Positions 1,613 to 42,322 of a stretch of 64,000 nt of DNA are shown one piece after another. Made by a program: the position numbers and the translations under genes. The stretch lies in the NCBI GenBank assembly GCA_944392785.1, contig CALXXW010000025.1, positions 43,264-107,263 of the forward strand. Direction: 5' to 3'. The notes under the pieces are model-generated. The model saw only the letters and a program-made list of their open reading frames with translations, was not told the DNA's origin and did not search any database. The DNA is from an uncultured Alphaproteobacteria bacterium. Lineage in GTDB: Bacteria > Pseudomonadota > Alphaproteobacteria > CAAHEQ01 > UBA3637. The first letter of the stretch is position 1. Each line of letters starts with the position of its first letter.

Positions 1613-2712
1613 GACCAGAAGGGATTGTCAAAGCCGTACAAGAGGTGTTGAGTGAGATTTTAAACTCTTCTCGTCCGGCAAATGAAATTTTGAATGCCTA
1701 CACGCGGTCCAGACGGTATATCGGGGCTAAAGACAGAAAGCAGATTGCTGAGCAAGTATGGTCTTATATACGCCATCGTCGACGTTTAGACTATTTATAT
1801 CCCAACACATCAACGGCGGCCAAACTGTCATTCCTTAAATTGGGATTGCCGGATCCATTACCGGCGGACATGCCTTTACCTGTTCAATGGGAAGTACCGG
1901 ATTGGTTGGTGGATAAGATAGAGCATCCGGAAATGGAGTTGCCGGCCTTATTAATGTCACCCCCCATCGTCTTGCGCGCCAACGGAGATCGGGATAAAAT
2001 TCAACAGTATTTGTCCGAAGAAGGTTTAGAAACAGATAAGACAAAATTATCACCGTTAGGATTGATTTTAAAAAAGCGAGTGTCCTTGAACACATCGGAA
2101 AGTTATCGACAGGGGTTGGTTGAGATTCAAGATGAAGGCTCACAGTTAGTGGCCTTAGAAACACATATTCAACCGGATGAACGTGTGTTGGATTATTGTG
2201 CGGGAGCCGGCGGAAAGTCGTTGATTTTTGCTCAGATGATGCACAATAAAGGGGAAATTATTGCCCATGATATTTCAAAGCGTCGCTTGGCGGAGCTTGA
2301 AAAAAGAGCTCTCAGAGCCGGTGCTCGGGTCATTCATACGAAAAGTCCGTTAGCCTCTGAGGATGAAGGTGCATTTACGCATGTTGTCGTTGATGCGCCT
2401 TGCTCCGGAGTCGGTACATGGCGGCGATGTCCGGATGCGCGTTGGAAGCTGACGATGGAACAACTGAATCAGCTGTTGAAAACGCAGGCGGATATTTTAG
2501 ATAAAGCCGTCGCATATGTGGCTTTCGGTGGACGCTTAAGTTATATGACCTGTTCTTTGTTGGCGTGTGAAAATACGGATCAAGTGGTGGCTTTTTTGAA
2601 GCGTCATCCGGATTTTTCGCTGTTGCGTCAGCGCCAGTTTTCACCGGCGCTGAGCGGAACGGATGGTCTTTTTGTTGCCGTTTTGGAACGGACTTCTTCA
2701 AAAAAGACCTAA
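1609..2712 (+). CDS. RsmB/NOL1/NOP2/Sun-family RNA m5C methyltransferase
   Basis: SAM motif DYCAGAGGKS and catalytic Cys motifs DAPCSGVGTWRRCPD and YMTCSL. The start overlaps the rlmE stop. Confidence 0.8.
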   Translation: MRPEGIVKAVQEVLSEILNSSRPANEILNAYTRSRRYIGAKDRKQIAEQVWSYIRHRRRLDYLYPNTSTAAKLSFLKLGLPDPLPADMPLPVQWEVPDWLVDKIEHPEMELPALLMSPPIVLRANGDRDKIQQYLSEEGLETDKTKLSPLGLILKKRVSLNTSESYRQGLVEIQDEGSQLVALETHIQPDERVLDYCAGAGGKSLIFAQMMHNKGEIIAHDISKRRLAELEKRALRAGARVIHTKSPLASEDEGAFTHVVVDAPCSGVGTWRRCPDARWKLTMEQLNQLLKTQADILDKAVAYVAFGGRLSYMTCSLLACENTDQVVAFLKRHPDFSLLRQRQFSPALSGTDGLFVAVLERTSSKKT

Positions 2713-2888
2713 GCGGTTTTGGCATTGCCGATGTTTAATGCCAGAACGTTAAGAACGGATTTAATTTTAGATAAAATCAGATCGTCTTTTGTCGTCGGTG
2801 TCAAGGCTGCCAAAGCACTGGCTCCGGCGATGATAGATGAAATGGCGACTAAAATATCGCTGATGTGCGTCATGATAAATGAAAACAT
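2709..2888 (-). CDS. Small membrane protein, holin-like candidate (59 aa; below the ORF-track size cutoff)
   Basis: Hand translation gives MFSFIMTHISDILVAISSIIAGASALAALTPTTKDDLILSKIKSVLNVLALNIGNAKTA. A GGAGA RBS lies 6 nt upstream. It has one hydrophobic helix followed by a charged tail. It is the last gene of the lysis cassette, and its stop overlaps the rsmB-like stop convergently. Confidence 0.5.
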   Translation of the reverse strand: MFSFIMTHISDILVAISSIIAGASALAALTPTTKDDLILSKIKSVLNVLALNIGNAKTA

Positions 2889-2910
2889 ATATTTCTCCTT
2901 TCTGTTAACG

Positions 2911-3216
2911 TTATTTCAAAATTAAGTTTAAAAGAGCCGCACAAATGGCTGCTCCGGTTGAGACGGCAATCACGTTGATGATGGATTTGATGGGCGCAAT
3001 TTCAACACGCGGCACGAATTCGCGTCTTAAATTTTCATGAAAAACCTGACACGAAGCCTTTGGTTGAACCGTTCCCATAAAATTAATCAATTCGGTGTGC
3101 ACATCTGTAATTTGTGTTTTGGCTAAACATACTTCTTTTTTGATGTCGACCAGTTGTTTTTGCAGGGTATCGACTAAGGCCATCAATTTACCCAGCTCCA
3201 TAGAAATGGTTGCCAT
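2911..3216 (-). CDS. Coiled-coil protein with C-terminal transmembrane anchor (lysis accessory: holin/spanin-like candidate)
   Basis: Start trimmed to MATISMELGKL, which follows an AAGGAGAA RBS. The N-terminus is helical (LVDTLQKQLVDIKKEV) and the C-terminus is hydrophobic (IINVIAVSTGAAICAALLNLIL). It sits directly downstream of the endolysin. Confidence 0.5.
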   Translation of the reverse strand: MATISMELGKLMALVDTLQKQLVDIKKEVCLAKTQITDVHTELINFMGTVQPKASCQVFHENLRREFVPRVEIAPIKSIINVIAVSTGAAICAALLNLILK

Positions 3217-3238
3217 ATTTTTCTCCTTTTGTGAAGTG

Positions 3239-3652
3239 TTAATAGGTTGCATAAAAGAGTCGATTCCCAATCTCGGCCGAGGGAACTAAGGTCGTCGACC
3301 AAGCGGGATTATCGTCTAAGTCGTGATAAGAGGTGGCGCCGTTCGTTGGGTCGGACAAAAAGCCATTCATCGCTCTTTGAGCAACGCGCAGAGCCATTTG
3401 GAAAACTGAACTATCCCATGGAGGATTTATCAGTTCTTCCATCTGTGATACGGCAGGATTCCAGCATTTGAATTGAAAAGGCTTGAGGCAAATTTCCGAT
3501 AGCGTGTTTCCCCACCAGAAATCACCCTTTCTTTTCGCATGGTTAAGTCGATTCATAATGACGGAGGCAACGGCTTCCATACCTTTTAACCCCTCATGCT
3601 GCGCTTCACCAAAAAGCGTTTTGGCAAAAATAAGTAGATCATCAGTCATCAT
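3239..3652 (-). CDS. SleB-type cell wall hydrolase (phage endolysin)
   Basis: Hydrolase_2/SleB-like pattern LFGEAQHEGLKGMEAVASVIMNRL...FQFKCWNP...YH. The start overlaps the terminase stop. Confidence 0.8.
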   Translation of the reverse strand: MMTDDLLIFAKTLFGEAQHEGLKGMEAVASVIMNRLNHAKRKGDFWWGNTLSEICLKPFQFKCWNPAVSQMEELINPPWDSSVFQMALRVAQRAMNGFLSDPTNGATSYHDLDDNPAWSTTLVPSAEIGNRLFYATY

Positions 3653-5115
3653 ATTCTTCTCCAGTCCAGACGTCTTTGCGGATAAGGCGGTCGTTGTCCC
3701 AAGCGTATCGGTTCAACCGTTAGGCAGCCGGCAACAGCGTCCAATCCATCGTCATGCGTATGTGTATTAGCGGGATTAAAGTCCCTCAATTCGGTTAGAA
3801 AAGGTGTCTTTTTCACGGATTCATGAACAAATAGGGCTCCATTCATCAACGGCGGTTCTAGAGCGGCCAGAATGCGCGTGTTTTTATGGCTGCGAGCTGT
3901 TTCCTCGATGACGGCACAGGCGATTCCGGATCGTGCAAGCTCTTGGCGTAATAATGCCGGTAAGAATTTACCGATACCATTGGTCTCTAAATGGACCGCC
4001 GGCAAAAATAAATCGCGGACAAATGTCGCAACGGTTTGGCATTGATAGGCGGTTGCTTCTTGAGCCGGAGGTACGGTCATATACAGCAGACGGTGAATAA
4101 AGGCGTTGCCTGTCTCATCAAAAAAGACGCATGCAATAACACTTTTATCTCCGTTGAGGGCACCGAAAGCCGGATCCCACCAACAAGCCGCTCCACACAG
4201 TCGGTGCCCGGCGAGTTTGAGAACAGCCGTATTGTTGGCTTCCGTATAACACAGTTCGTCCGAGTAAAATCGCAGACGTTGTGCTTCCAGACGAGAGCTT
4301 TCCGGCGGTACGGCTTGCAGCATCATTTGACTGGCAAATTTGGTGGGCCCCGATCGTTTTTCAAGAGCTTGGATTTTAGCTAAATCAAAACGTTCCGGCC
4401 AGGCAGATTGTCCGTTTTGTGTCAATAAAGGAATTTTTAATACGGGCCAATGTTTCAAAAATCCGCTTGATGACGTATCATAAATTGTTTCATAGGTGTG
4501 AGGTGTCCCTACATATAAAGTCATGCCGCCCGGCGTTAAAATATAATCCAGCTCACTGAGCTTTCGGCGCAATTCAATCCGTTTATGAGACGTATCACAT
4601 GTTTTGGGAACCTCGACATCATCACAGATAATGACATCGGCACGACAACCTGTCATGTTGGCCATCAAGCCGCGCGCCAATACAGAGGGGTCTCGAAAAC
4701 CGGAACGGCGCACCACAGTAAAGCGATCAGAAGCCCACTCTTCACTTTTTGTTGGTTTCAATAAGTGCGTTAAAGGATGTGTTTCAATGATACGCTTCAT
4801 GTGGGTCGCCATTTTTTTGGCCAAGCTATGGTCTGCCGATAAAATTAACAAACGACATTCCGGGTTTTGCCATAGAATCCAAGCCCCGAACAGGCCGACC
4901 AATGTTGATTTCCCCGAGTTTCGAAAAGCCATCATCAGGGCATTTTTTTCTTCGGCTTGCCAACATTTTTCCAGGAAACGACACATGCGTTTGTGGTGAC
5001 GAGGCAAATGAAGCCCGGAAATTTCATCCCAAATCCAAACAAACTCTGTCAGAGAAAGAATCGGTTGTGCTGTCGGGCTCAAAGCCGGTGTTTTCGATAC
5101 TGTCATCGGGGTCAT
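3649..5115 (-). CDS. Phage terminase large subunit
   Basis: Walker A (FRNSGKSTL), Walker B (ADVIICDDVEV) and a C-terminal RNaseH-like nuclease region (ACWWDPAF...HDDGLDA). It lies last among the structural genes, as in T7-like genomes. The alternative start ATG at 5106 has better GGAGG spacing. Confidence 0.85.
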   Translation of the reverse strand: MTPMTVSKTPALSPTAQPILSLTEFVWIWDEISGLHLPRHHKRMCRFLEKCWQAEEKNALMMAFRNSGKSTLVGLFGAWILWQNPECRLLILSADHSLAKKMATHMKRIIETHPLTHLLKPTKSEEWASDRFTVVRRSGFRDPSVLARGLMANMTGCRADVIICDDVEVPKTCDTSHKRIELRRKLSELDYILTPGGMTLYVGTPHTYETIYDTSSSGFLKHWPVLKIPLLTQNGQSAWPERFDLAKIQALEKRSGPTKFASQMMLQAVPPESSRLEAQRLRFYSDELCYTEANNTAVLKLAGHRLCGAACWWDPAFGALNGDKSVIACVFFDETGNAFIHRLLYMTVPPAQEATAYQCQTVATFVRDLFLPAVHLETNGIGKFLPALLRQELARSGIACAVIEETARSHKNTRILAALEPPLMNGALFVHESVKKTPFLTELRDFNPANTHTHDDGLDAVAGCLTVEPIRLGQRPPYPQRRLDWRRI

Positions 5116-5374
5116 CCTCCAAAAGATAAGGGGCCGCCGCTCGTGCTTTTTGAATCCAATCCTCTAGGCGCGTATCTTGATGAGAAGCATCAAAAGGCTG
5201 TTCCAAACGGATTAACCTTTCCAATAACGCGATATGCGATAGGACGGCTTTACAGGCATTATGAAAAGCTGTAAATCCTTTCGCATCCATGGGGATAGAT
5301 TCTTGCCAGAGAGCGTCATATGTTGCCAAAGCATGTTCCAGGTATGGTTTTAACTTGGCGGATAAATCACACAT
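5024..5374 (-). CDS. Hypothetical phage protein (position compatible with a small terminase subunit)
   Basis: 116-aa ORF immediately upstream of terL, with a helical N-terminus and acidic tail. No motif recognised. It overlaps the terL start by 83-92 nt. Confidence 0.4.
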   Translation of the reverse strand: MCDLSAKLKPYLEHALATYDALWQESIPMDAKGFTAFHNACKAVLSHIALLERLIRLEQPFDASHQDTRLEDWIQKARAAAPYLLEDDPDDSIENTGFEPDSTTDSFSDRVCLDLG

Positions 5375-5393
5375 AGCGGCTCTCCTGTGTCAT

Positions 5394-5870
5394 TTATTTT
5401 AACAATGAACGACTGAGGCCACTTGAAATGTTGTTGAAGGAACTCAACAGATTTTGATTGTTTTGATTGGTCAGGCGCTGAGAGGTCAACAAATTGTTAG
5501 AACGCGTCTTTTCAATACCATTTAATAAGGCTTCTAAAGAGATATTGGCCTGATTCACCAAAAATTTATCGTCTGTATCATAGTCCCGTTGAAGGGCGTC
5601 CAGAACCGCTTGTCCTGTGCCGCTTTGTGAACTGAGACCACTGGCACCTAATTTGGCCTTATAGGCAGATTGTTGTTGTTTTAACAGATTTTTATTTTCT
5701 CGCCTTTCCTCGGCCAGAGTCAGCTGTGCTTGTTGTTTATCAAGTTCATAGGCTTGATTGGCTAAACGATTATTTTCTTTAGTTTGTTTGCGTTGTTCTT
5801 TGTTCCCTTTGTAGGCAAAGAATGCGGATGATGCTGCAGTTATAGCACTGGCAGCTGCTGCGACTTCCAT
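5394..5870 (-). CDS. Q/N-rich coiled-coil virion protein candidate (internal/neck protein-like)
   Basis: Hydrophobic N-terminus (AAAASAITAASSAFFAY) followed by a long coiled coil. It occupies the slot after the nozzle gene, where T7-like phages encode gp13/gp14. The assignment is positional only. Confidence 0.45.
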   Translation of the reverse strand: MEVAAAASAITAASSAFFAYKGNKEQRKQTKENNRLANQAYELDKQQAQLTLAEERRENKNLLKQQQSAYKAKLGASGLSSQSGTGQAVLDALQRDYDTDDKFLVNQANISLEALLNGIEKTRSNNLLTSQRLTNQNNQNLLSSFNNISSGLSRSLLK

Positions 5871-5872
5871 AA

Positions 5873-7792
5873 TTATCCTCCTATTTTTAAATCACTGGTG
5901 ACACTAACAAGTTGAAATTTTTTAGGCATTGAGCTGACAATTCGCCAAACGGGATCTGTCGGGCGTCTTCGCCATCCCAAAGCGCGGACCACAATATCTT
6001 CCGTGCGGGGTGTTAACATGTCATCTAATTGATATGATGCCAAAGGTTGTGTGAGTACCTGAGCAATCCCATTTCCCGTATCGATTTCTAACGATTCGGT
6101 ATCTATGACACGAAAGACTCCTTTGACCAACCGAACGCTGGAAACCGGAGCGGTACCGTTGCTGGAGCCGACCAAGGGTGGCAGTGGTGCTACTTCATGT
6201 GTGTAAGGAAGCCCAACCGTCACCTCTGAGGCGGCTATATCTATATCAATACATCCGTTTTGAATCGTTGTTTCCGGCAGAACGATTTGATCGGCAACAA
6301 TTTTAACCGTTTGATTGTTCAAAATACTCAGCCCGCTAAAGTGCGTTTGAGGCGTTTCCGTTTGTATCTTGAAGGCACAATCGACAAAATATCCCTCCTC
6401 AAAGCACTCCAGAAAAAATCGAGTCCCTCGGCGGATGACAAAGTAAGGTTTTTTACTGGCCATGGCGACCGATAAAAAAGAACCGGCTGTTTTTTGATGA
6501 GTAAAGCTTTGTAAATCTTCCGATCGAAAACTGGTCAACACACATAAATCACCCGTGCTCATGATGATATACGCTTGTCGGCTGTGTTTGTCATAAGCAA
6601 AGTCAATTGGGTTTTGAATCAGGTGTTCGGCCAGCAGAGATAAATCCGTTGCTTGATAGGCATCCTCTAAATCCGAAAACAGGAATTCTCGAATCTCTCG
6701 ACCATTTGCCGAGGCAAAAATAGTCGCACCGTCAATTCCTATCGGCGGGACAAAACGCTCTTCAGTAGAGCCGACCTGCGTTTGTCGTTTCAAAGCGATA
6801 CTGGTCGGTGTTAACGGATCGCCGGTCACCATCCACTCGGCATTTGTTGTGAAGACTTGCAGATGCCGTCCCGCGAACAAAGCGCAAATCACATTGGATT
6901 GATCCGATAGAATGCTGAAATCAATCCCTTCGCTGTCATAGCCGTCTCCTAGTTCAAAATTACTTAAATCACCGCTTTGGCTGAACCATAAATTATTGGG
7001 TAATTTTTTACTGCCGCCGAAAACCAAGCGTGACTGGTAAAAGGCGACACAAATCGGCCAACCATGCTCGTCGGAAAAAGTAGGCTCTCCCCAGACACGG
7101 GTCGGTTCTAAAGAAGGGTTTCCTTCGGTGTCGGTTAACAGCACTTTCTTGACGGTTGCTTTGGCACTGGTTGCCGAGACAATTTCATCTATAACAACAT
7201 AACCGGCGGCAAGTTTGAATGTTTTTCCGACATCACTGTCCGTAAAAACATCTGCCGAAGCCGTTAAGGTGACGCTACCCGTAATACCCGAACTGGCCAA
7301 CGTAATGTGGTCGGCACAGTATTTGTGATAAGGTTGTAAGACGATATCTCCCTCTTTTAAAAACTCAAAGTTTGTCAGCGTCCAGGTTCCTTCTTGTTGA
7401 CTGAGCTTTTGCGGACATGTATCCGGATGTGTCAAGAATAAATAGTCAGAACCTTGACACCAACGTACTTGATGAATTTGTGAAGTTGTCCAAGGTGTTT
7501 GTAAAGTCGTTATTTCTATTTCGTCTTTATAAATACGCATCAGCTTGTTTTGCAGCAAAATCAAATAGGATTTAGAACCGCTTTGTTCATAAGAAATTAA
7601 CCGTCCTTCACTGTTTAACTCCGCAACAAATTTTAATCCCGGGCGGCGATGAACACCTCCCGTCGGCTCAATAAAGACATTTGTCAAAGTAAGTGCCCCG
7701 TTGGCATAACTCGTCAAGTCAACACGTCCCAAAAGGTCATGAGATAACTCCCCTCCGGAAAAGTTGGTTTTTTGTGTAAATAAGCTGCTCAT
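5873..7792 (-). CDS. Tail tubular protein B / nozzle (T7 gp12-like)
   Basis: The N-terminus (LFTQKTNFSGGELSHDLLGRVDLTSYANGA...GGVHRRPGL) parallels T7 gp12 (ISQSIKNLKGGISQQPDILRYPDQGS...EGLQKRPPL). Size (639 aa) and position after the adaptor gene fit. Confidence 0.65.
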   Translation of the reverse strand: MSSLFTQKTNFSGGELSHDLLGRVDLTSYANGALTLTNVFIEPTGGVHRRPGLKFVAELNSEGRLISYEQSGSKSYLILLQNKLMRIYKDEIEITTLQTPWTTSQIHQVRWCQGSDYLFLTHPDTCPQKLSQQEGTWTLTNFEFLKEGDIVLQPYHKYCADHITLASSGITGSVTLTASADVFTDSDVGKTFKLAAGYVVIDEIVSATSAKATVKKVLLTDTEGNPSLEPTRVWGEPTFSDEHGWPICVAFYQSRLVFGGSKKLPNNLWFSQSGDLSNFELGDGYDSEGIDFSILSDQSNVICALFAGRHLQVFTTNAEWMVTGDPLTPTSIALKRQTQVGSTEERFVPPIGIDGATIFASANGREIREFLFSDLEDAYQATDLSLLAEHLIQNPIDFAYDKHSRQAYIIMSTGDLCVLTSFRSEDLQSFTHQKTAGSFLSVAMASKKPYFVIRRGTRFFLECFEEGYFVDCAFKIQTETPQTHFSGLSILNNQTVKIVADQIVLPETTIQNGCIDIDIAASEVTVGLPYTHEVAPLPPLVGSSNGTAPVSSVRLVKGVFRVIDTESLEIDTGNGIAQVLTQPLASYQLDDMLTPRTEDIVVRALGWRRRPTDPVWRIVSSMPKKFQLVSVTSDLKIGG

Positions 7793-8358
7793 CCGCGTAC
7801 CTCAATCAAGGAAAAGTCCTGAAACGCCGGCGGTACGGCCTGTTGACTGTCAACGAGGCGCGCTTGAGCGATTTCCGTATCGGCGATTTTGCATAAAAAT
7901 TCGGTGCGTGAGGTGCTTTCCGTCAAAGGCAGGCAGAATTCGGCGGCCAATTTGGCAACCAAAGCCTGCACAAAAAACGCCGGAAAAGATTCTTCACTCG
8001 GTCGCGCAATATAAGTCAAAATAACATGGTCACTGTCGGTATGGAGTTGTTGTTTGTGAATGCGATAGGAAAGTCCGGAACCTTTTAAACAATGTCCGGC
8101 CGAAATAATGCGCACGCAATCATTAGGTAAAGCGTATGCATATTTGAAATCGGCCGTTGGGTTAACGGCTAAGCGATTGAGTCGAACCTGCGTCAGAGCA
8201 AAGCGCCATGGATAGGCCGCCAGTAATCCGTCAACCGTCAAATCATAAAGCTGATCGGCAATATGTGCTTCGGCGGTTTCTTCCTCAAAAGATGAAATGC
8301 TTTGAGCTCCCAGTTTGATAAGCGCTCGAGAGCAAAGGCCTGTAGCTGTCATGGTCAT
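7789..8358 (-). CDS. Tail tubular protein A / head-tail adaptor (T7 gp11-like)
   Basis: Start trimmed to MTMTATG, which follows an AAGGAG RBS. Its 189 aa compare with 196 aa for T7 gp11. The N-terminal pattern (CSRALIKLGAQSISSFEE) resembles gp11 (VNDILASIGEPPVSTLEG). It overlaps the nozzle gene start. Confidence 0.55.
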   Translation of the reverse strand: MTMTATGLCSRALIKLGAQSISSFEEETAEAHIADQLYDLTVDGLLAAYPWRFALTQVRLNRLAVNPTADFKYAYALPNDCVRIISAGHCLKGSGLSYRIHKQQLHTDSDHVILTYIARPSEESFPAFFVQALVAKLAAEFCLPLTESTSRTEFLCKIADTEIAQARLVDSQQAVPPAFQDFSLIEVRG

Positions 8359-8378
8359 GATAAACTCCTTTTGATGAT

Positions 8379-8441
8379 AAAAACAAATTGCCACCCCTCT
8401 TTGGAAAGGGAAGGGATGCATGAAACAAGAGAGGTGGCAAT
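8379..8441 (-). terminator. Hairpin plus T-run immediately after the capsid gene (attenuator/terminator)
   Basis: The arms at 8387-8401 and 8427-8441 form a 15-bp stem. The single non-Watson-Crick position is G-U on the minus-strand RNA but C-A on the plus strand. TTGTTTTT follows on the minus strand. Confidence 0.5.
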
Positions 8442-8486
8442 TCAAAAAGATTCGGAATTGTCTTTATTCAGACAAAAACCGAATCA

Positions 8487-9332
8487 CTAAGCAGATGCGG
8501 CAGGTGTATCGGCAACATCCATTTTCACGACACCTTTCGGATCGATTAAGCAAGCTCCCTGACTCATCATATTGCTGACGAAGTGAGCGGCATAATCACC
8601 GTGCCAAGTGATATCCGTCTTAATGTCTTGCCCCGAGGCGTGTCCAACAGCCGAACGATGGTAGATAAAACAGGTATGTGAAGAGCTGGATGACGGTAAT
8701 CCGGTATGCATGATCCAGACAATCCCCATCCATTTCCGGCTTTCGGAGCCCGTTAGCATCGGATAGGCTTCCCCTACATAGTTGGCAGAAGAAAATTCCT
8801 CAATGGACAGCAGTTGATTCCACTGGGCCGGTCCGACCAAAGCATAACGCTCTCCATCATCAGGTACGTCGTTATTATTTAATAAGGTGAAAGCCTCTAA
8901 AATGCGCTCTTTTGTTAATCCTTCGGATGAGGTCCCGACGATTTGTGTGGCCTTATTCAACGCGTTGATGATCAACTCGTCCGTTTTGCGGCCCAAAGCA
9001 TAAGCACCAGCGGTTGCCAAAGCCGTCCGTTCATCATGCCCTGTTTTCAATTCATCCAATGAATCGATCCATTCTCCGGCATAATAGTCGGTCAACGTGC
9101 ATTCAACCGGTTCGTGTGTGACGTTGGAAGGTGTAATTTGTGCATTACGTGTCTTCGTCGTCGCGGCCATTTTCCCAATGACTTGGAATGTTGTCGAGGC
9201 GCCGCGGATATTGTTTTTAGAGCGGACTGTATTTTTCAGCTTCGATCCTTGTTGTTGATAGGCTGTATGGATATCTGCTTCAAAATGTTTAATAAAAGAT
9301 ATATCAATAGCCGTACTTGTTGTTTCAGACAT
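8487..9332 (-). CDS. Major capsid protein (HK97-fold candidate)
   Basis: 281-aa ORF directly after the scaffold gene, with a good RBS. The N-terminal pattern (FIKHFEADIHTAYQQQGSKLKNTV...TFQVIG) is typical of small podoviral coat proteins. The assignment is mainly positional. Confidence 0.7.
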   Translation of the reverse strand: MSETTSTAIDISFIKHFEADIHTAYQQQGSKLKNTVRSKNNIRGASTTFQVIGKMAATTKTRNAQITPSNVTHEPVECTLTDYYAGEWIDSLDELKTGHDERTALATAGAYALGRKTDELIINALNKATQIVGTSSEGLTKERILEAFTLLNNNDVPDDGERYALVGPAQWNQLLSIEEFSSANYVGEAYPMLTGSESRKWMGIVWIMHTGLPSSSSSHTCFIYHRSAVGHASGQDIKTDITWHGDYAAHFVSNMMSQGACLIDPKGVVKMDVADTPAASA

Positions 9333-9394
9333 AATTTTTATCCTTTCTGAGTTTCAATAAAATTGTTAAAATCACGTGGTGTGGTTATAGGTCC

Positions 9395-10195
9395 TCACCT
9401 GCCACTGCCAGCGTTTGAGCCGTAAAGGCGTTTAAAACCTTCCTCGACACGTTGAACCAGCTTGGGATCATGTTGACGCCAATACTTGGGATCTTGCATC
9501 AATCGACGAAGGGTTTCTTCTGTGTCGGCCCGTGGAGCGGGTTCTCGTTCGGACAGAAGAGGTGTTTCATTTCTCTCTTGCATCATCTGGTATAAGGCTA
9601 AAATACCATCTTTTGAGGAGGCAAGAATATCAAAAATTTCCGGGTTCAAATGTTTTTCCGCCCATGCGGATATTTGTCGTCCGATTTGATTAAATTGTTC
9701 GGGACCGCCGAATTCTTGTTCCAGAGCGGCCAGCTCTTTTTCCGTACGCACATCCGCTGATAGACTTTTTAAAACAGGAATAACTTTTTCGACAGCCAAA
9801 TCATAGACAGCTTGGGCTTGTTCATTCGTGAAACCAAGGTCGAAAAGCATTTTTTCCATTTCTGAATCGCGCTTCAATAATTCACTTTTGAGGGTGATAT
9901 GATAGTCTTCCGGTCTTTCCGGACGAACTCCAAACGACTGTGAACAGCGTTCGCTGAAACGACGTTCCAGAGCTAAATATGATTTGATCAATTCCTCTAG
10001 CTTGACTTCGCCTGTTTCGGGATTGATGAATTTAGCGGGTATGCGTAAAGATGTCGTAGACGAAGATGGTATTACGTCTGCTTCTGTCACTTGATTGTCT
10101 TGAAAGACACACGCTTCCGTCATGTTGGGTAGGTCTTTGGAATTCAAGTATTCAGGCTTGTTTTTTTTAATTGTTCGTTCTGTTTTTTTAGTCAT
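9395..10195 (-). CDS. Capsid scaffolding protein candidate
   Basis: Acidic, helix-rich 266-aa protein between the portal and capsid genes, as in T7 gp9. Confidence 0.55.
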   Translation of the reverse strand: MTKKTERTIKKNKPEYLNSKDLPNMTEACVFQDNQVTEADVIPSSSTTSLRIPAKFINPETGEVKLEELIKSYLALERRFSERCSQSFGVRPERPEDYHITLKSELLKRDSEMEKMLFDLGFTNEQAQAVYDLAVEKVIPVLKSLSADVRTEKELAALEQEFGGPEQFNQIGRQISAWAEKHLNPEIFDILASSKDGILALYQMMQERNETPLLSEREPAPRADTEETLRRLMQDPKYWRQHDPKLVQRVEEGFKRLYGSNAGSGR

Positions 10196-10385
10196 GTTCT
10201 TTTCCTTGTTTAATCAAGTTAATAATATGGGCGACCAACGCCCGTTGTCCCTCCAAAAAACGCAAAGCGGCATCACTTGTTTCCGGAGCAAGTGTGCGCT
10301 CCCATGTCAGATGTTTCAGGTGTTGAAGCACAACTTGCCCTTCGCGGGAGGAAAAAGTACGTGTAAAACTGGATGCAATGCTCAT
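10188..10385 (-). CDS. Small hypothetical phage protein
   Basis: 65-aa ORF translationally coupled to both the portal stop and the scaffold start (overlaps at both ends). Confidence 0.5.
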   Translation of the reverse strand: MSIASSFTRTFSSREGQVVLQHLKHLTWERTLAPETSDAALRFLEGQRALVAHIINLIKQGKEHD

Positions 10386-11896
10386 GCGATACCCCCACTC
10401 AAAAGAGGAACCTTAGGCGCTGGATTCAAGGTTTCATCGCCTTGAGTCACTTGTCTCAGAACGGCCAAGGGAATGTTAAGGCGTTCACCAAACCATTTCA
10501 CAAATGCCGCCACGTCTACTTGTTTTAATCCTTCATCACCCAGTCGTGTAATGGTGTTGAGCCATACCATGGCATTGTTCGCATCAATTTGTCCTTGTTT
10601 ATCGGAGCGAGGTGATTGATAGGTAATTTTCATTAATCGACCGTCAATAAAGACATCAGGAATCTCGCCGCGTTTACGAAGAATGGATGTTGCTCGATCG
10701 ATTAAAGGGACTAAAAGTTCGCTTTGTAAACGACCATAGGTTGCTCCTAAAATTCGCATCATTTCATCTGAACGCTCTAACACTTCCGTTGCGGTCATGG
10801 CCGGTGTGTCGGTTTGTCCAAGAGTATCGCCTAACAAGGCATGCCGGATTCGACTTCTTAAATCCTCTATCATTAATTGCGAGACGTCAAATTTCCCGGG
10901 AGCCTCTAGGGCCGTCAGTCCTTTCGAACCGACCGCCTTGGGAATGATAGCTCCGGGGGTCAGCTGGATGTTAGCCGGATTTAAGACGCCATCGTCTTCA
11001 GCTAACCAAATTCCCGTCACGGCAATAGAGGCATTTTTTAAAATCAACTCGACAACTTTGTTTGCGGTTTTAATGTCGGGCAATGCCTTCATGACGGGAG
11101 AACGTCCATAGACCTCTCCCGGAGCTTTTAGCCAGCGGAAAGAAATAAACGGCGATGTGTCGAAAATAGCTTCTTTTAAGACACAATTAAAACCGTTTAG
11201 GGAATCATACTGGCTGTCGGGTTCGATAAATACCGTATAACGATAACCTCCTTTAAGAAGAGGAATCACGGCTTCGATAACCGAAATAGGCTTTTTGTCT
11301 TTATCGTGTTCGTCGACGAATTTTTGAGGAAAATCAATTTCCGGAAAGCGTCCTTTCAACGCATCCAGTGTCATCAAAGAATGTCGAAAGGTTTTATCCA
11401 AACGTCCGCTGTGTCCTTCTGCCAAACAAATTTCCGACAACGGGATGGCTGTAAAGCGAAAAGCTGAGGCGCTTCCGAAAGGGGCCTCTTCAAATAACAA
11501 ACAGGCCGTTCCCGTCGTGATAAGATCCAAATAGCATTGATGGACCTCTAGCCCAAAGTTTGAACGGTCAAAATGATTGTGTAATGTGGTTGAAATACGC
11601 TCCAGAATAGGGCCGGCCTCCACACGCTCGTCTTCGGACAAGTCTGTTCCGGCCGTTAGTTGAAACCAGCGCAACCACGGCGGCGTCATGTCAGATAAAA
11701 TTTGTGCCGCCAGTTGATCAACAGCATCCGGTGCCGTCCCATCAAACAAAAGATTTACTTTGTTCGTTGTTGTTTTAAACGTGCTTTCGCGTTGAGGAAA
11801 GGCAAACTCATAACACTCTTGCCACACGCTTTCCCATTGAGCGCGATGAGCCAATGCCTTTTTATATTGATGATATAGATCTTGAATATCGGTCAT
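10382..11896 (-). CDS. Podovirus-type portal (head-to-tail connector, T7 gp8-like)
   Basis: 504 aa. The N-terminus (YKKALAHRAQWESVWQECYEFAFPQRE) parallels T7 gp8 (YERLKNDRAPYETRAQNCAQYTIPSLFP). GGAG RBS. It is the first gene of the structural block. Confidence 0.8.
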   Translation of the reverse strand: MTDIQDLYHQYKKALAHRAQWESVWQECYEFAFPQRESTFKTTTNKVNLLFDGTAPDAVDQLAAQILSDMTPPWLRWFQLTAGTDLSEDERVEAGPILERISTTLHNHFDRSNFGLEVHQCYLDLITTGTACLLFEEAPFGSASAFRFTAIPLSEICLAEGHSGRLDKTFRHSLMTLDALKGRFPEIDFPQKFVDEHDKDKKPISVIEAVIPLLKGGYRYTVFIEPDSQYDSLNGFNCVLKEAIFDTSPFISFRWLKAPGEVYGRSPVMKALPDIKTANKVVELILKNASIAVTGIWLAEDDGVLNPANIQLTPGAIIPKAVGSKGLTALEAPGKFDVSQLMIEDLRSRIRHALLGDTLGQTDTPAMTATEVLERSDEMMRILGATYGRLQSELLVPLIDRATSILRKRGEIPDVFIDGRLMKITYQSPRSDKQGQIDANNAMVWLNTITRLGDEGLKQVDVAAFVKWFGERLNIPLAVLRQVTQGDETLNPAPKVPLLSGGIA

Positions 11897-11911
11897 AAAA
11901 ACTCCTTGGTC

Positions 11912-11940
11912 AAAAGAAAAACCCGCCTGCTTTAGACGGG
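11912..11940 (-). terminator. Rho-independent terminator directly upstream of the portal RBS
   Basis: The minus strand reads CCCGTC-taaagca-GGCGGG followed by TTTTTCTTTT. It ends about 15 nt before the portal ATG. Confidence 0.6.
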
Positions 11941-11975
11941 TCTGTTTTGTCAGCTAAAATACAACTATTACGATT

Positions 11976-12005
11976 AAACGGTCTTGATTGATATCAAGAC
12001 CGTTT
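11976..12005 (-). terminator. Perfect 13-bp hairpin after the 144-aa gene
   Basis: AAACGGTCTTGAT-tgat-ATCAAGACCGTTT. It lies 33 nt downstream of the stop at 12038. The flanking T-run is weak. Confidence 0.45.
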
Positions 12006-12037
12006 TGATTTAATCGATTTAGATATACGTTTCCCTG

Positions 12038-12472
12038 CTAACTGAAAGTCACTTTATCATACTTTTTTTCTGTTGTCAAGGAAAATTTTCCTTTTTTTAA
12101 TTTTAAATAACAAAAAAGTTGATATGGCGTGAACAGAAAAGGGGCTTCTATACCTAGAAAACGCTTGACTGTTTCAACGCAGGTATAGGGGCGCAGTCGT
12201 GCCGGCGTCAGTTTGGGAATAGAGGGCGTCGCGCGTAAAAGTTTATATCCTTTGTCTCGAAAAAAAGCCCGAATCGTGATATGCTTTAACAAAATAAGGT
12301 CTGTATAGTGTCTGAGCGGATCAATGACAATCCATTCGTGACCGTTGCCCAAGATAAGCAAGCAATGATAAAAGCCTTTTTTTAAAAAGTGCATCCACCA
12401 TAGTGTGGGTTGCCCGCCAAAAGCAACGAATGCAAAAGGATAACGATATCCAACGGCAAGTGATGTTTTCAT
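12038..12472 (-). CDS. Hypothetical protein with His...Cys signature (possible permuted papain-like fold)
   Basis: 144-aa ORF with an AGGGAGA RBS. It contains GNGHEWIVIDP and a later YTCVETVKRFLGI. No confident family assignment. Confidence 0.55.
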   Translation of the reverse strand: MKTSLAVGYRYPFAFVAFGGQPTLWWMHFLKKGFYHCLLILGNGHEWIVIDPLRHYTDLILLKHITIRAFFRDKGYKLLRATPSIPKLTPARLRPYTCVETVKRFLGIEAPFLFTPYQLFCYLKLKKGKFSLTTEKKYDKVTFS

Positions 12473-12495
12473 AAATTCTCCCTTCTTTTTAGGAA

Positions 12496-12864
12496 TCAGG
12501 CATTTGCGCCGGGGGAAACAATCCCCTTTTGGGATAAAATTTTATCCAGAAAATGTAGGGCTTCTTGCCATAGTCGACAGATTCGCGGTGTGTCTCCGAA
12601 ATGGGGGTGGGGCGGGACTTGCTCAAAACCATAATGAGATAGGATTTTGATGTGCTCCGGTTTTAAAAGCCCTTCAGTAGCCAGCCGCTTGACAGCAATA
12701 AAGATGTCGGATGATTCACAAGGGCGAATCGTTTTCGGGGTATACCCTTTTGTTCGTTGTTTGGCATTTTTTTCGCATAAACAATACCAAAACCAAGCTT
12801 CCTCAGAGGTTTCAAAAGGTGTTGCTTTTTGATTGTTTATGTGTGAGCGGTAAATATTCCTCAT
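12496..12864 (-). CDS. Hypothetical early/regulatory protein of the phage-like cluster
   Basis: Start trimmed to MRNIYRSH, which follows an AAAGGAGA RBS. It is the first gene transcribed from the SOS-box promoter. Cys/His-rich. Family not recognised. Confidence 0.55.
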   Translation of the reverse strand: MRNIYRSHINNQKATPFETSEEAWFWYCLCEKNAKQRTKGYTPKTIRPCESSDIFIAVKRLATEGLLKPEHIKILSHYGFEQVPPHPHFGDTPRICRLWQEALHFLDKILSQKGIVSPGANA

Positions 12865-12891
12865 AGTATCTCCTTTCGTCTGTAAAAAATG

Positions 12892-12906
12892 GAACAAAAT
12901 AGGAAC
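12892..12906. promoter_or_regulatory. LexA (SOS) box, alphaproteobacterial type
   Basis: Exact GAAC-aaaatag-GAAC direct repeat, 28-42 nt upstream of the 12864 start. It overlaps the -10 region that lies downstream of a TTGACT -35 on the minus strand. Confidence 0.6.
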
Positions 12907-12957
12907 TATCACTAAAAAAATAGGAAGTCAAGTATAAAATAAGAAAAAAATCCTATT
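12896..12957. promoter_or_regulatory. Three copies of AATAGGA (two direct, one inverted): candidate repressor operators
   Basis: AAAATAGGAA occurs at 12896-12905 and 12917-12926. An inverted TCCTATT at 12951-12957 overlaps the -35 of the repressor promoter. Confidence 0.3.
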
Positions 12958-12984
12958 GACATGTGTAGAATGATATGTTATAAG
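12956..12984 (+). promoter_or_regulatory. Sigma70-type promoter for the CI-like repressor
   Basis: TTGACA (12956-12961), a 17-nt spacer, then TATAAG (12979-12984). Confidence 0.5.
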
Positions 12985-13027
12985 GGAGTGCAACTAAAAA
13001 GAGTATTTTAAAAAAGGAGAGGGCTAC

Positions 13028-13696
13028 ATGAATGCAGATCGTCAACAGTCAGGAGAGGGAATGCAACTGACTTACGAAGAAATTTGGGTCGGAATCGAAA
13101 ATTTGGCTTCCCGTGAGGGACTCTCTCTATCCGCTCTGGCGACAAAGGCGGGATTGGATCCGACAAGTTTCAATAAATCTAAAAGGTTGGGAGCAGATGG
13201 TCGTAAACGTTGGCCTTCAACCGAAAGCATGAACAAGGTCCTGCAAGCGACAAATACCACTATTTTTGAATTTATGGAGCTGGCGGGTCAACCCTATTGT
13301 CCTAAGGCCAAGACCATACCCTTGCTGGGGTTAGCCAAGGCGGGACGAGAGGGGTATTTTGATTCTTCGGGATCGCCATTGGGATTGGACTCTTGGGATG
13401 GTATTGATTTTCCGCTTCAGTTGAAGGAAAGGGTCTATGCCTTAGAGGTATCTGGTAATAGTATGGAGCCGGCTTATCGGGATGGAGATAAATTGATTGT
13501 TTCACCGGATGCCGAGATTCGTAAGGGGGATCGGGTTGTCGCCAAACTGTCGACGGGCGAGGTGATGGTGAAAGAGTTATTGCGTCAATCGGCCCGACAA
13601 ATAGAGCTCAGGTCTTTAAATCCTTTGCACGAAGATATTGTGATGAATGCCGCGGATGTTTTATGGATGGCGCGCGTTATTTGGGTGAGTCAATAG
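13028..13696 (+). CDS. CI/LexA-like repressor (HTH + S24 autopeptidase)
   Basis: N-terminal HTH (LSLSALATKAGLDPTSFNKSKR), Ala-Gly candidate cleavage site (LAKAGREG), and catalytic Ser (SGNSMEP) and Lys (VVAKL). It is divergent from the phage-like cluster. Confidence 0.85.
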   Translation: MNADRQQSGEGMQLTYEEIWVGIENLASREGLSLSALATKAGLDPTSFNKSKRLGADGRKRWPSTESMNKVLQATNTTIFEFMELAGQPYCPKAKTIPLLGLAKAGREGYFDSSGSPLGLDSWDGIDFPLQLKERVYALEVSGNSMEPAYRDGDKLIVSPDAEIRKGDRVVAKLSTGEVMVKELLRQSARQIELRSLNPLHEDIVMNAADVLWMARVIWVSQ

Positions 13697-14340: not shown

Positions 14341-16157
14341 ATGAAGGTAAAAACAGGAACAAAACGAAAAAAACACTTTGTTGTGACGGTTGAAACGGCT
14401 CAGGCATTGACCGACGCACAAAAGGCTCGATTGACTCGGCAGCTTGCCGATGTTTTGGAAGTTGAACAGGTTCGTCTGAAAGAGTTGTTGAACCCTGATT
14501 TGTTGGGAGGCGTGCGCCTACATCTGGATGCTTTGGTCGTAGATGCCTCTGTTCGTGGTCGCTTGGAGCAATTTAAAACAGAGATGGAGGCATATGTTTC
14601 TCCATCCATGGATGTTCCCAAGTTGACGCATTTGTTTTTGGATAAAATTAAGGCGTTTGAGGGTAAACCGTTTATGACCGAAATCGGAACGGTTCTTTCT
14701 GTTTCCGACGGGGTTGCTAAGGTTTCCGGTCTGCCTTCTGTGATGGCCGGAGAGCGTGTTCGGTTTAGCGGAGGTCAACAGGGAATGGCTCTGAACTTAT
14801 TGCCGGACAGTGTTGATATTACCTTGTTTGATGAAGCGGATACGATTCGTGAGGGGGATAGTGTTTTTCGGGATAATCATATGAATGAAATACCGGTTGG
14901 CTTGTCTTTGGCCGGCCGCGTTATCAACCCGTTAGGTCAGGTGCTGGATGATAAGGAAAGTCTGCTGCATTTGGCGCGTCGTCCGGTAAATATGCCGGCT
15001 CCCGGGATTATCGATCGTGATAAAGTGCATGTGCCTTTGCAAACGGGTATTTTGGGTATTGATTCTTTATTTCCGATAGGGCGCGGACAGCGAGAATTGA
15101 TTATCGGCGATCGTCAAACGGGTAAAACGACGTTGATTGTTGATATGATTTTAAGCCAGAAAAAACAAAATGATGCGGCTCAAAGTTTTAAGGATAAAGT
15201 TTTTTGTGTTTATGTCGCTATCGGACAGAAGCAATCAACCGTGCGGGATATGGTGCGTGTTTTACGACGTGAAGGAGCCATGGACTATACAACCGTGGTT
15301 GTCGCAACGGCTTCGGATAGTGCCGCCCTTCAGTATTTAGCCCCGTATGCCGGTTGTGCGATTGGTGAATTTTTCCGAGATAATGGTATGCATGCATTGA
15401 TTTTTTATGATGATTTGTCAAAACATGCGGTGGCCTATCGTGAAATGTCTTTATTGCTGAAGCGTCCGGCCGGGCGAGAGGCTTTTCCGGGGGATATTTT
15501 CTATCTACATTCAAAACTGTTGGAGCGAGCGGCTCAATTATCCGAGGCAAAAGGAGGTGGCTCTTTGACAGCCATTCCTGTGGTTGAAACGCAAGAGGGT
15601 GATGTGTCGGCCTATATTCCGACCAACGTTATTTCAATTACCGATGGTCAAATTTTTCTGGACACTTCTTTATTCCATGAGGGAGTTCGTCCTGCCATCA
15701 ATGTAGGTTTATCGGTCAGTCGCGTCGGTTCGGCCGCACAGGTTGCCGCTATGAAACAGGTTTCGGCTTCTTTAAAACTGGATTTGGCGCAATATCGTGA
15801 AATGTTGTCTTTTGCTCAGTTGTCTTCAGATTTAGATTCGTCGACTCAGGCATTGCTTAATCGAGGAGCCCGGTTAACAGAAGTGATGAAACAAACGCCT
15901 TATCATCCTTACACACGAGCGCAAGAGGTTTTGGCGCTGTGGATTGCGCAGAAGGGCTATTTGGATAAAATAGCCATTCAAGATGTTTCCTCTTTCATCA
16001 ATGATGTGGAAAAGGCGGCTCCGTTTTCCATTTCTGATGTGATGCAGGAAATTCAACAAACGGGATGCTTAACTCAGGAAATAGAAGCGCGGCTGCAGGC
16101 TTTTCTGGATGACTATGTGGCTCAATCCTGTAAGGCGGGGAAAAAGGATACGGGCGC

Positions 16158-16161
<4 letters not shown>
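14341..16161 (+). CDS. atpA: F1 ATP synthase alpha subunit with N-terminal fusion of the delta (OSCP) C-terminal domain
   Basis: Residues ~10-85 (VTVETAQALTDAQKARLTRQL...LNPDLLGGVRLHLDALVVDASVRGRLEQF) match the C-terminal domain of AtpH. From ~aa 92 the protein is a canonical alpha (IGTVLSVSDGVAKVSGL, Walker A GDRQTGKTT). Total 606 aa versus the usual ~510. Confidence 0.9.
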
Positions 16162-41995: not shown

Positions 41996-42322
41996 ATGTT
42001 CTTAAAACCGCACAAAGGGGGATATATGCTATCTGTACGTGTGATGCCGAATGCTCGGCATAATGGTATAGAGGGTATATGGAATGAGACATTTGTTAAA
42101 ATAGCGCTTTCGGCGCCGGCGGTTGATGGTAAGGCTAATGAAGCGCTGATTTCTTTAATAGCGGATAGGCTTCATATCAGAAAAAGTGCCGTTTCCTTAA
42201 TTTCCGGAATTAAGTCTCGGGAAAAACGTTTGGGAATTCATGGGGAATTACCGTCGGAGACAGTCGCCGCTTTTGAAGAAGAAATAAGAGCGACATGTCA
42301 ATCAGGGAAAGCACTTTATTGA
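41996..42322 (+). CDS. DUF167 (YggU-like) protein
   Basis: VRVMPNARHNGIEGIWNE...ALSAPAVDGKANEALISLIADRL pattern. Confidence 0.7.
   Translation: MFLKPHKGGYMLSVRVMPNARHNGIEGIWNETFVKIALSAPAVDGKANEALISLIADRLHIRKSAVSLISGIKSREKRLGIHGELPSETVAAFEEEIRATCQSGKALY

Follow-up and report, generated by a model that had tools for sequence, protein, structure and literature searches.

Gene content and borders of the cluster

The window analysed here (the whole stretch of 64 kb, from the genome of an uncultured alphaproteobacterium) carries a cluster of short-tailed phage (podovirus) genes between positions 2709 and 13696. An earlier note on this DNA had proposed that the cluster is an SOS-controlled, T7-like element and perhaps a gene transfer agent (GTA). 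According to the map of open reading frames (ORFs) and to scans against Pfam and PHROGs, it consists of 14 intact, closely spaced genes on the minus strand and a divergently orientated gene for an S24 repressor. Transcription runs from g138 and g144 through the genes for portal, Bbp19-like protein, scaffold, capsid, adaptor, nozzle, a gp14-like protein, g116, the large terminase subunit (TerL) and a SleB-type endolysin to two membrane proteins. The features are listed in Table 1. The start codons of adaptor and TerL were taken from the gene calls in conspecific contigs.

Table 1. Genes and regulatory features of the cluster (positions in the window)
Feature	Position	Strand	Evidence
CI/LexA-like S24 repressor, 222 aa	13028..13696	+	PF00717 7.5e-23, phrog_4
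Putative repressor promoter TTGACA-N17-TATAAG, TCCTA motif abutting the -35 box	12956..12984	+	read from the sequence
LexA-type direct-repeat box GTTCCTATTTTGTTC	12892..12906	-	site scan
g138, early gene, 122 aa, candidate late-gene regulator	12496..12864	-	uncharacterised family
g144, early gene, 144 aa, phage-derived	12038..12472	-	uncharacterised family
Palindrome AGGAAAATTTTCCT, abuts the late -35 box	12092-12079	-	
Late promoter TTGACA-N17-TAAAGT with TG motif	12079-12051	-	promoter scan
Late leader	11912..12044	-	motif CAGTTAGCAG...GTATATC at 12044-12022
Perfect palindrome of 30 nt in the late leader	12005-11976	-	
Intrinsic terminator, immediately before the portal start codon	11943-11912	-	
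Portal, T7 gp8 type	10382..11896	-	PF12236 9e-123, phrog_332
Bbp19-like small protein	10188..10385	-	PF25181 6.6e-16
Scaffolding protein, T7 gp9 type	9395..10195	-	PF05396 8.5e-9
Major capsid protein, 281 aa	8487..9332	-	PF19821 1e-71, phrog_3437
Adaptor (tail tubular protein A), gp11 type, 189 aa	7789..8358	-	phrog_394 5e-48
Nozzle (tail tubular protein B), gp12 type, 639 aa	5873..7792	-	phrog_376 4e-127, weak PF25675
gp14-type internal virion protein, 158 aa	5394..5870	-	PF24072 1.8e-5, phrog_418 2e-5, both weak
g116, small helical acidic protein	5024..5374	-	phrog_31793 (no function given)
TerL, T7-type clade, 477 aa from the likely start	3649..5082	-	phrog_38 1.4e-85, weak PF22530
SleB-type (Hydrolase_2) cell-wall hydrolase, endolysin	3239..3652	-	PF07486 1.9e-17, phrog_938
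Coiled-coil protein with C-terminal membrane anchor, 101 aa	2911..3216	-	conserved in 49 loci
Membrane protein of 59 aa, putatively holin-like	2709..2888	-	phrog_9685 1.3e-16

All structural, packaging and lysis genes named in the earlier note were recovered in the ORF map and in the profile searches it had proposed. However, its gene list was incomplete, as it lacked the two conserved genes g138 and g144 between repressor and portal. The protein it called coiled-coil is present and is better described as a gp14-type internal virion protein, with a PF24072 match that falls below Pfam's cutoff; judged from the profile matches this is the only ejection-type protein kept in the window. The idea of a tail-less element was wrong, since adaptor and nozzle are present and only the fibre and the large ejection proteins are missing. 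A tailocin would consist of tail genes only, whereas this cluster has conserved genes for capsid, portal, scaffold and TerL.

The small protein g116 is always encoded immediately upstream of TerL and shifts along with it in the permuted gene order described below. It is a candidate for the small terminase subunit by position only, because no similarity was found to T7 gp18 or to the ORF at 10138-10536 upstream of TerL in phage Hodr. The coiled-coil protein with the membrane anchor probably assists in lysis.

No integrase, excisionase, primase, helicase or polymerase domain was detected in any ORF of the cluster, and no RNA polymerase, gp15/gp16-like or fibre gene was found inside it (Pfam, PHROGs). 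A repeat check gave no att-like direct repeats bracketing the cluster and tblastn no fibre homologue in the whole window, in line with the absences listed in the earlier note. Twenty large ORFs sampled across the rest of the window were host-type genes without exception (20/20), among them pyruvate formate-lyase, era, tgt, autotransporters, glycosyltransferases, corA, xth, fusA and the S10 ribosomal operon. The capacity for autonomous excision and replication is thus absent from these chromosomal genes, which have housekeeping flanks and no att repeats.

On one side the neighbours are an ompA-family gene, rlmE and an rsmB-like gene. The latter is convergent and its stop codon overlaps that of the 59-aa membrane protein, an overlap of 4 nt as stated before and as follows from the coordinates. 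On the S24 side the Pfam scan placed a sixA-like gene and atpHAGDC, also in line with the earlier description. The ORFs are intact, and the start/stop overlaps read from their coordinates agree with the translational coupling that had been proposed. With 44.9% GC compared to 44.3% in the rest of the window, the cluster is fully ameliorated to its host.

Relatives, gene orders and long-term residence

A search with the capsid yielded 3717 proteins at E<=1e-10, many of them 60-86% identical and located on long contigs. Scanning one genome per GTDB species, we found capsid relatives in 144 species and studied the best 80 loci by tblastn and clustering of ORF families. These are from gut, rumen and faecal metagenome-assembled genomes (MAGs) named 'Alphaproteobacteria bacterium'; all compared genome loci (L001-L084) derive from metagenome assemblies, and the genome of the window is a MAG of this kind as well. 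Across the 80 loci the capsid is 59-86% identical, and a unit of about 10.5-11 kb was present in 74 of them. Two MAGs are labelled Lactobacillales/Lactobacillaceae (L014, L056), yet have alphaproteobacterial flanks, probably due to mis-binning or mislabelling.

Three gene orders were distinguished. Type A (about 53 loci including the window, 10.4-10.9 kb) has S24 divergent from g138-g144-portal-bbp19-scaffold-capsid-adaptor-nozzle-gp14-g116-TerL-lysin-g119-g59. In type B (21 loci, about 11 kb) the packaging-lysis block is displaced as one unit, resulting in S24 and g138-g144-g116-TerL-f19-lysin-f22-(f40)-portal to nozzle and gp14-like. Within both types, which together span 10.4-11.2 kb, the entire gene set was intact and no integrase or replication genes lay beside it in loci uncut by contig ends. 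S24 was divergent from the cluster in all 69 loci where it was detected, including every contig-complete type A and B locus, and g138 was present in 70 loci. Type C comprises six loci (L058, L059, L061, L064, L065, L067) which lack the control module (S24, g138 and g144), carry a TerL cut to its N-terminal half and in some cases lack the portal. Either decay or a split of the element into separate loci would account for them. A short fibre-like gene (f96) was seen in type C, with an FtsZ-like gene separating the TerL fragment from the portal in two loci.

Some additional genes and insertions were observed. Types B and C have a gene of about 85 aa (f17) between capsid and adaptor, the position at which phage Hodr has an 81-codon gene (2632-2877). 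The window type lacks this gene, which may encode a head decoration or head-closure protein. In a single species (L008, 4857-6572) the repressor gene and g138 are set apart by a GC-rich, highly repetitive insertion of 1.7 kb, which contains CACC/GCCG-type repeats and a small ORF.

A larger form occurs in Azospirillum brasilense, A. doebereinerae, A. argentinense, A. halopraeferens and A. thermophilum, according to a homologue search, as well as in MAGs of Azospirillaceae and Rhodospirillaceae. IMG/VR scans with capsid and g144 returned predicted proviruses of 17.6-19 kb with the same gene order. This form adds a tailspike of 680-700 aa between the gp14-like gene and TerL, composed of a T7-fibre N-terminal domain and a pectate-lyase-like beta-helix. 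It furthermore adds a PAS-GGDEF-EAL gene for cyclic di-GMP signalling between scaffold and capsid, which splits the head module (insertions at L124 4788-6638, L152 6056-8410, L238 13324-15675, L240 13599-15983 and L241 13673-15976). The length of the insertion varies, and some Azospirillum species have many further host-type genes at this place; in A. doebereinerae and A. thermophilum no capsid gene appeared in the roughly 7 kb that follow the scaffold. The locus asd-sdhCDAB-aminotransferase-S24 is common to A. brasilense, A. doebereinerae and A. thermophilum, whereas A. halopraeferens has other flanks. A small, often proline-rich protein ending in RK.LLGE precedes the portal in Azospirillum (L240 10489-10914, L241 10615-10824, L242 5779-6231) and in type B (f40) and is absent from the window type.

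At the position of the Azospirillum tailspike, two gut loci (L066, L072) carry a short fibre of 278 aa with a T7-fibre N-terminal domain. Type A and B loci, inspected with 10 kb of flanking sequence on both sides, contained no fibre homologue. As the window and these loci are without one, the gut forms can be regarded as reduced, fibre-less versions of an older element.

Among genuine phages the nearest are HTVC010P-type pelagiphages, small Vibrio podoviruses and BPP-1 with its relatives, at 26-41% identity. The best match was Pelagibacter phage Hodr with 41% over the capsid, while the nozzle is 26-35% identical to tubular B proteins of pelagiphages and BPP-1. The nearest relatives of capsid and nozzle are thus not from T7 proper (Autographiviridae). 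Since these phages rely on the host RNA polymerase, its absence from the cluster is not a loss. TerL falls within a large T7-type clade, with 2795 matching phage records mostly from Klebsiella, Escherichia and Pseudomonas phages, T7 among them. When compared to Autographiviridae, the virion gene order (portal, scaffold, capsid, gp11, gp12, internal proteins, TerL) is matched except for gp15/gp16 and the fibre; a single-subunit RNA polymerase and a T7-type replication module were found neither in the cluster nor in the scanned ORFs of the window.

Two genomes suggest what a complete ancestor may have carried. In Hodr the nozzle is followed by genes of 159, 783 and 1247 codons, the size pattern of gp14, gp15 and gp16 in T7, of which the window keeps the first alone. 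A real phage contig of 51 kb (L221) has a g144 homologue just upstream of the portal and, further upstream, a primase, a C5-methylase and a D5-type helicase; its gene content indicates the ancestral form and the losses. A complete temperate podovirus would be expected to have contiguous genes for integration, replication, all ejection proteins and fibres; neither the primase, helicase and methylase of L221 nor the 783- and 1247-aa genes of Hodr have a counterpart in the cluster.

At every locus the flanks consist of host genes which are syntenic within subclades. The arrangements were lnt, element, atpC-D-G-A; corA/xth-side genes, element, genes for a pilus-type ATPase and platform; element followed by sixA; and in type B f31-f27, element, f23-f24-f25-gltX. 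Neighbours such as atp, sixA and a YgjP-like gene recur on opposite sides of the element depending on the clade, which argues for local rearrangement and not for re-insertion. For the species of the window, seven capsid-bearing contigs from separate assemblies were available, with identical junctions at all three places shown and the other four reported as similar. The junctions with rsmB and sixA/atp given in the earlier note are thus real but species-specific, as other clades have other housekeeping neighbours. Gene f36, which flanks the element in clade A2, was considered as the equivalent of the rsmB junction and rejected, since by its sequence it seems to be the platform protein of a type IV pilus/type II secretion system and rsmB clustered apart. 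Satellites would be expected to carry integrase and replication or primase genes and to be patchily distributed among strains; here such genes are absent and the position is fixed within species and clades.

Pairwise identities of capsid, nozzle, portal and TerL correlated with those of flanking host proteins, the genes covered by this test, in four independent flank sets (Pearson coefficients of 0.81, 0.94, 0.93 and 0.90). No near-identical elements in divergent hosts were found among the compared loci. On average the proteins of the element are at least as conserved as the flanks, and several flanking housekeeping proteins have diverged more than the capsid. The ratio of nonsynonymous to synonymous substitutions (dN/dS, Nei-Gojobori) ranged from 0.087 for the capsid to 0.215 for g116. 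All scored genes, which are those of the element except the 59-aa g59, lay within this range, including g138 (0.105), g144 and S24; neighbouring host genes had 0.05-0.20. These ratios are approximate, as dS of 1.2-1.8 is near saturation, and in our reading of the sequences the intact reading frames at such divergence are the main argument for selection. Flank co-divergence, synteny and dN/dS together point to vertical inheritance under purifying selection, as known for GTAs. With the distribution, the GC content and the conspecific junctions they support the earlier view of a long-resident element kept by selection over that of a recent insertion or a decaying remnant.

Further observations concern other genes of the window. 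The ATP synthase alpha subunit (14341-16161; also in L004, L243 and L244) has 604-606 aa and an N-terminus matching the C-terminal half of delta/OSCP; it looks like a delta-alpha fusion conserved in the lineage. Two adjacent proteins of about 830 aa (36698-39193 and 39343-41850) contain repeats of the polymorphic membrane protein type of Chlamydia, the first with an additional autotransporter beta-domain. A protein of 874 aa (42316-44940) joins glycosyltransferase domains of family 10 and family 11 (fucosyltransferase-type).

Predicted control of the early and late genes

The direct repeat GTTC-N7-GTTC is the LexA operator of Alphaproteobacteria. A perfect copy, GTTCCTATTTTGTTC, overlaps the -10/+1 region of the early g138 promoter, whose -35 box is TTGACT at 12931-12926. 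Taken alone this site is statistically insignificant, as one was found in 64 kb and 2.25 are expected by chance, and the window holds no second SOS gene as a control. The box carries weight because its position is conserved: GTTCYYRTTTTGTTC was found at the same position in 39 related loci. Additionally, of four Azospirillum species three have GAAC-N7-GAAC at the corresponding place, and the fourth has it with one mismatch.

The motifs for self-cleavage of the repressor are intact, namely the Ala-Gly bond in AKAG (103-106), GNSMEP (143-148) and VMVKEL from 179. The Ala-Gly site and the Ser and Lys motifs are kept in the repressors of type A and Azospirillum. The conserved box and these motifs, but not the lone site, support the proposed SOS wiring, and the element is a putative member of the LexA regulon. 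In type B (L051, L053, L056-L083) and L049 the Ala-Gly site and the catalytic Ser of the repressor are lost, and GTTAA-N6-GTTAA is found in place of the LexA-type box. These elements appear to be uncoupled from SOS, a loss that seems to go together with the change in gene order.

A second motif, TAGGAA/TTCCTA, adjoins the -35 box of each of the three promoters (early, repressor and late) and is conserved in types A and B. As the N-terminal DNA-binding domain of the repressor is conserved in both types as well, we tentatively regard this motif as the site of the S24 repressor and the direct repeat as that of LexA.

The late promoter, located within the 3' end of g144, is the best promoter-like site of the region, with 10/12 matches. 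It has the form TTGACA...TGnTATAAT in most type A loci (matched in 42 of 72 sequences scanned), and where this form occurs TAGGAAAAnAATCC abuts the -35 box. The best terminator-like site is located at 11943-11919, is followed by a T-run and lies directly 5' of the portal start codon. The succession of promoter, leader with CAGTTA...GTGTATC and GC hairpin with T-run is conserved across loci, with stem sequences differing between clades. This unit precedes the portal in type A and g116/TerL in type B. A hairpin with T-run of <= -10 kcal/mol was found after g144 in 64 of 65 loci compared to 27/65 and 23/65 in coding controls, and the median stability was -16 kcal/mol versus -9 and -8.3. The leader matched no Rfam family.

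A strong, seemingly constitutive promoter that runs into a terminator in front of morphogenesis and lysis genes is the pattern of PR'-tR' in phage lambda, which suggests that an early product allows read-through. The likeness to lambda PR'-qut-tR' with Q includes the distance of about 60-140 nt to the intrinsic terminator and the position downstream of repressor-controlled early genes. In contrast to lambda, where Q is known, no Q homologue was recognised among the genes of the element. By this analogy we infer antitermination at the late promoter, and g138 and g144 are the only candidates for the early product.

Neither g138 nor g144 had significant or consistent matches in Pfam or sequence matches in PDB, even with profiles of 26-66 sequences. 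For g138, 322 representative clusters match at E<=1e-3, and its single-sequence model was too poor for use (predicted local distance difference test, pLDDT, 52). Its identity with DUF6362, the protein at its position in one real phage, was considered and rejected. In alignments of g144, His36 and Cys98 are invariant and Cys37 nearly so. In the AlphaFold2 model (pLDDT 80) a strand begins with His36 and a helix with Cys98, as in papain-like geometry. A search of PDB with this model gave no significant fold match; papain-like cysteine peptidases were weak at E>0.1, a hint only. The model is thus compatible with g144 possibly being a papain-like Cys/His hydrolase. It also resembles uncharacterised Caudovirales proteins (E 1e-8, template modelling score 0.6-0.7).

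Proposed function and known systems

The element is, as far as gene content and conservation can tell, a particle-building, packaging and lysis module unable to excise or replicate, which selection has kept since before the split of gut Alphaproteobacteria and Azospirillaceae. We propose that it descends from a temperate podovirus with a T7-type virion module, has been domesticated and fixed in the chromosome and is kept by the host lineage for its particles, most likely in a GTA-like role, and give this reading a probability of roughly 0.5. On these grounds it is a strong candidate for a new GTA-like element.

In undamaged cells, host LexA at GTTC-N7-GTTC and S24 at TAGGAA/TTCCTA-type sites would silence the element. 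DNA damage would lead to RecA-stimulated self-cleavage of both and switch on the early operon g138-g144, the product of which would then let RNA polymerase from the late promoter pass the terminator in a manner similar to lambda Q at PR'-tR'. A single long transcript from the portal gene through the lysis genes would result. Proheads would be built of capsid, scaffold and portal, filled by TerL, perhaps with g116, and closed by adaptor, nozzle and the gp14-type protein, before endolysin and the two membrane proteins lyse the cell. As the element can neither excise nor replicate, the packageable DNA would be the chromosome. Uptake would have to proceed without a gp15/gp16-type channel or a fibre gene at the locus, with a fibre encoded elsewhere or import on the side of the recipient. 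DNA could be delivered into the periplasm and then imported by competence proteins of the recipient, as is the case for RcGTA; parts could also come from a second locus or be borrowed from phages, or delivery could be absent as in PBSX.

Several points weigh against this proposal. No fibre or other receptor-binding gene and no gp15/gp16-like gene was found, which makes delivery of DNA doubtful. TerL belongs to the T7-type clade, the studied members of which cut concatemers at specific sites, and thus lends no support to non-specific packaging. The nearest phages have genomes of 31-36 kb compared to the cluster of 11 kb, and as a capsid of that size could hold the whole cluster, a head smaller than its own genes, as in GTAs, cannot be claimed. 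The phage-type repressor and late switch are retained, so that regulation is largely the element's own. Maintenance is not universal, since neither the LexA-type box nor the catalytic residues of the repressor survive in the 21 type B loci and type C lacks the control module and a whole TerL. Finally, the compared loci are all from MAGs, and the dN/dS values are rough because dS is near saturation.

A far-reaching form of the proposal is a third, independently domesticated GTA family of Alphaproteobacteria, derived from a podovirus, switched by SOS and a Q-like step, delivering without gp15/gp16 and old enough to be shared by gut/rumen bacteria and Azospirillaceae. We put it forward tentatively and consider it somewhat doubtful in this full form.

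A defective prophage similar to PBSX would form particles and lyse the cell without delivery and could be kept for SOS-triggered altruistic lysis, release of DNA or other cell contents, competitor killing or immunity against related phages through the repressor. This would fit the missing fibre gene and gp15/gp16-type ejection proteins and the SOS-linked control, which is also found in PBSX and pyocins. The authors of the podovirus-like FpGTA of Faecalibacterium voice the same doubt on their own element (PMC12946183). However, adaptor, nozzle, gp14-like protein, portal and TerL are selected as strongly as the lysis genes, which is hard to explain by lysis or immunity alone, and killing by adsorption would require a receptor-binding protein. 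We therefore judge it unlikely, though worth serious attention.

The element could also be satellite-like or helper-dependent, producing its own filled heads and tail stubs and borrowing fibres, and perhaps ejection proteins, from a co-resident or superinfecting podovirus or obtaining them from a second chromosomal locus. In Azospirillum and two gut loci a fibre or tailspike with a T7-fibre domain is encoded exactly between the gp14-like gene and g116/TerL, so that the docking site on adaptor and nozzle probably persists. The fibre genes of RcGTA lie at a separate locus. The same is reported for FpGTA (PMC12946183). Still, the integrase, excisionase and replication genes of all known satellites are absent, co-divergence with the host and fixed positions speak against horizontal spread, and neither the 64-kb window nor 10 kb on both sides of type A and B loci contained a fibre homologue. 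This explanation seems quite improbable to us.

An inert prophage remnant that persisted by chance or hitch-hiking is very improbable. Six type C loci without control module, with truncated TerL and partly without portal, and 21 type B loci without repressor catalysis could be seen as decay. However, in dozens of species 14-15 genes have kept their reading frames while synonymous sites are saturated, at dN/dS of 0.09-0.21; the regulatory sites have been preserved as well, and the capsid exceeds several flanking housekeeping proteins in conservation. A complete temperate phage with integrase, replication, fibre and ejection modules elsewhere or supplied by the host is hardly credible, as housekeeping genes adjoin both sides in every clade and the head genes of Azospirillum are split by host cargo while a packaged genome must be contiguous, even though the inspection covered 64 kb of the genome and the 10 kb adjoining related loci on each side.

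Few GTA families have been described, and the path from a phage to a device of the host is poorly understood. The loci described here form a large natural series with successive stages of domestication: a complete phage relative, the 18-kb Azospirillum form with tailspike and cargo, the 11-kb fibre-less gut form in two gene orders, the SOS-uncoupled variants and the rearranged variants without control module and with truncated TerL. If the particles move DNA, this would imply damage-triggered gene exchange in common, though uncultured, gut and rumen Alphaproteobacteria and in plant-growth-promoting Azospirillum; it would also mean that a T7-type virion can be repurposed and raise the question of how a cell is entered without ejection proteins. 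The promoter-leader-terminator unit and the two uncharacterised early proteins form a compact system with a possibly new mechanism of antitermination or late activation. Since Azospirillum is culturable and genetically tractable, the whole model is directly testable there.

Searches of the literature on podovirus or T7-like GTAs in Alphaproteobacteria, on the gene content of BaGTA and on GTAs in Azospirillum gave no description of the element. Particles of A. lipoferum are reportedly siphovirus-like. We considered a link of the element to these particles and claim none, for this reason and in view of the 2012 account, in which mitomycin-induced particles of A. lipoferum and strain B510 with random host DNA of 10 kb were tentatively assigned to RcGTA-like regions (PMC3899980). 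Section 2.8 of that paper names a 'phage-related lysozyme', AZOBR_20012 with its orthologues, as the only phage-like core gene of Azospirillum, in identical context in four strains (PMC3899980). It may be the endolysin of the element, with phage neighbours unrecognised in 2012.

Among known systems, PBSX of Bacillus subtilis is an SOS-inducible, non-replicating, chromosomally fixed and lysing producer of particles, as is proposed for our element. It differs by a myovirus-like contractile tail, unrelated genes and Gram-positive hosts. PBSX has been described as GTA-like, packaging 13.4 kb of host DNA (PMC12946183). Capsid-forming phage-inducible chromosomal islands and other satellites resemble the element in size (10-15 kb), in having their own capsid, portal and terminase and in lacking some virion parts. 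In contrast to the element, which co-diverges with its host, they have integrase, regulatory and replication genes, excise and spread horizontally. HTVC010P-type pelagiphages and BPP-1 share homologous genes for portal, scaffold, capsid, tubular A and B, gp14-like protein and TerL in the same order, but are complete phages of 31-43 kb with replication genes, internal proteins of gp15/gp16 size and fibres. BaGTA of Bartonella is also a domesticated phage cluster of Alphaproteobacteria that co-diverges with its host; compared by layout, it differs in a terminase followed by a 620-aa portal, a fibre gene, a size of 20-25 kb and a run-off replication origin.

The statement of the earlier note that known GTAs are siphovirus-derived is outdated since the 2026 description of FpGTA, for which its authors claim the first podovirus-like GTA (Nat Commun 2026, PMC12946183). 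FpGTA shares with the element a head and packaging operon of about 10.5 kb of short-tailed phage type, the occurrence in gut bacteria, the lack of replication genes and the near-ubiquity in its host group. Its hosts are Gram-positive Firmicutes, fibre and lysis genes can occupy a second locus, and it is characterised by 40-nm particles, 8.4-8.9 kb of random host DNA and proteomics (PMC12946183). Our element, known from its genes and compared by description, has its own lysis genes and repressor.

RcGTA of Rhodobacter, Caulobacter and Dinoroseobacter is similar to the element in being a chromosomal cluster of structural, packaging and lysis genes without integrase and replication genes, vertically inherited and under purifying selection; its particles are released by lysis and accessory genes may sit elsewhere in the genome. 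It is siphovirus-like, with prohead protease, HK97-type head, tail tube and tape measure and with host control of the CtrA/GafA type. The Pfam and PHROGs matches speak against a place in the Rhodogtaviriformidae, as they showed a scaffold where RcGTA has a protease and neither a tail tube nor a tape measure. Compared to RcGTA, the element has a T7-type portal, scaffold, adaptor and nozzle and is equipped with a CI-like repressor and a LexA box.

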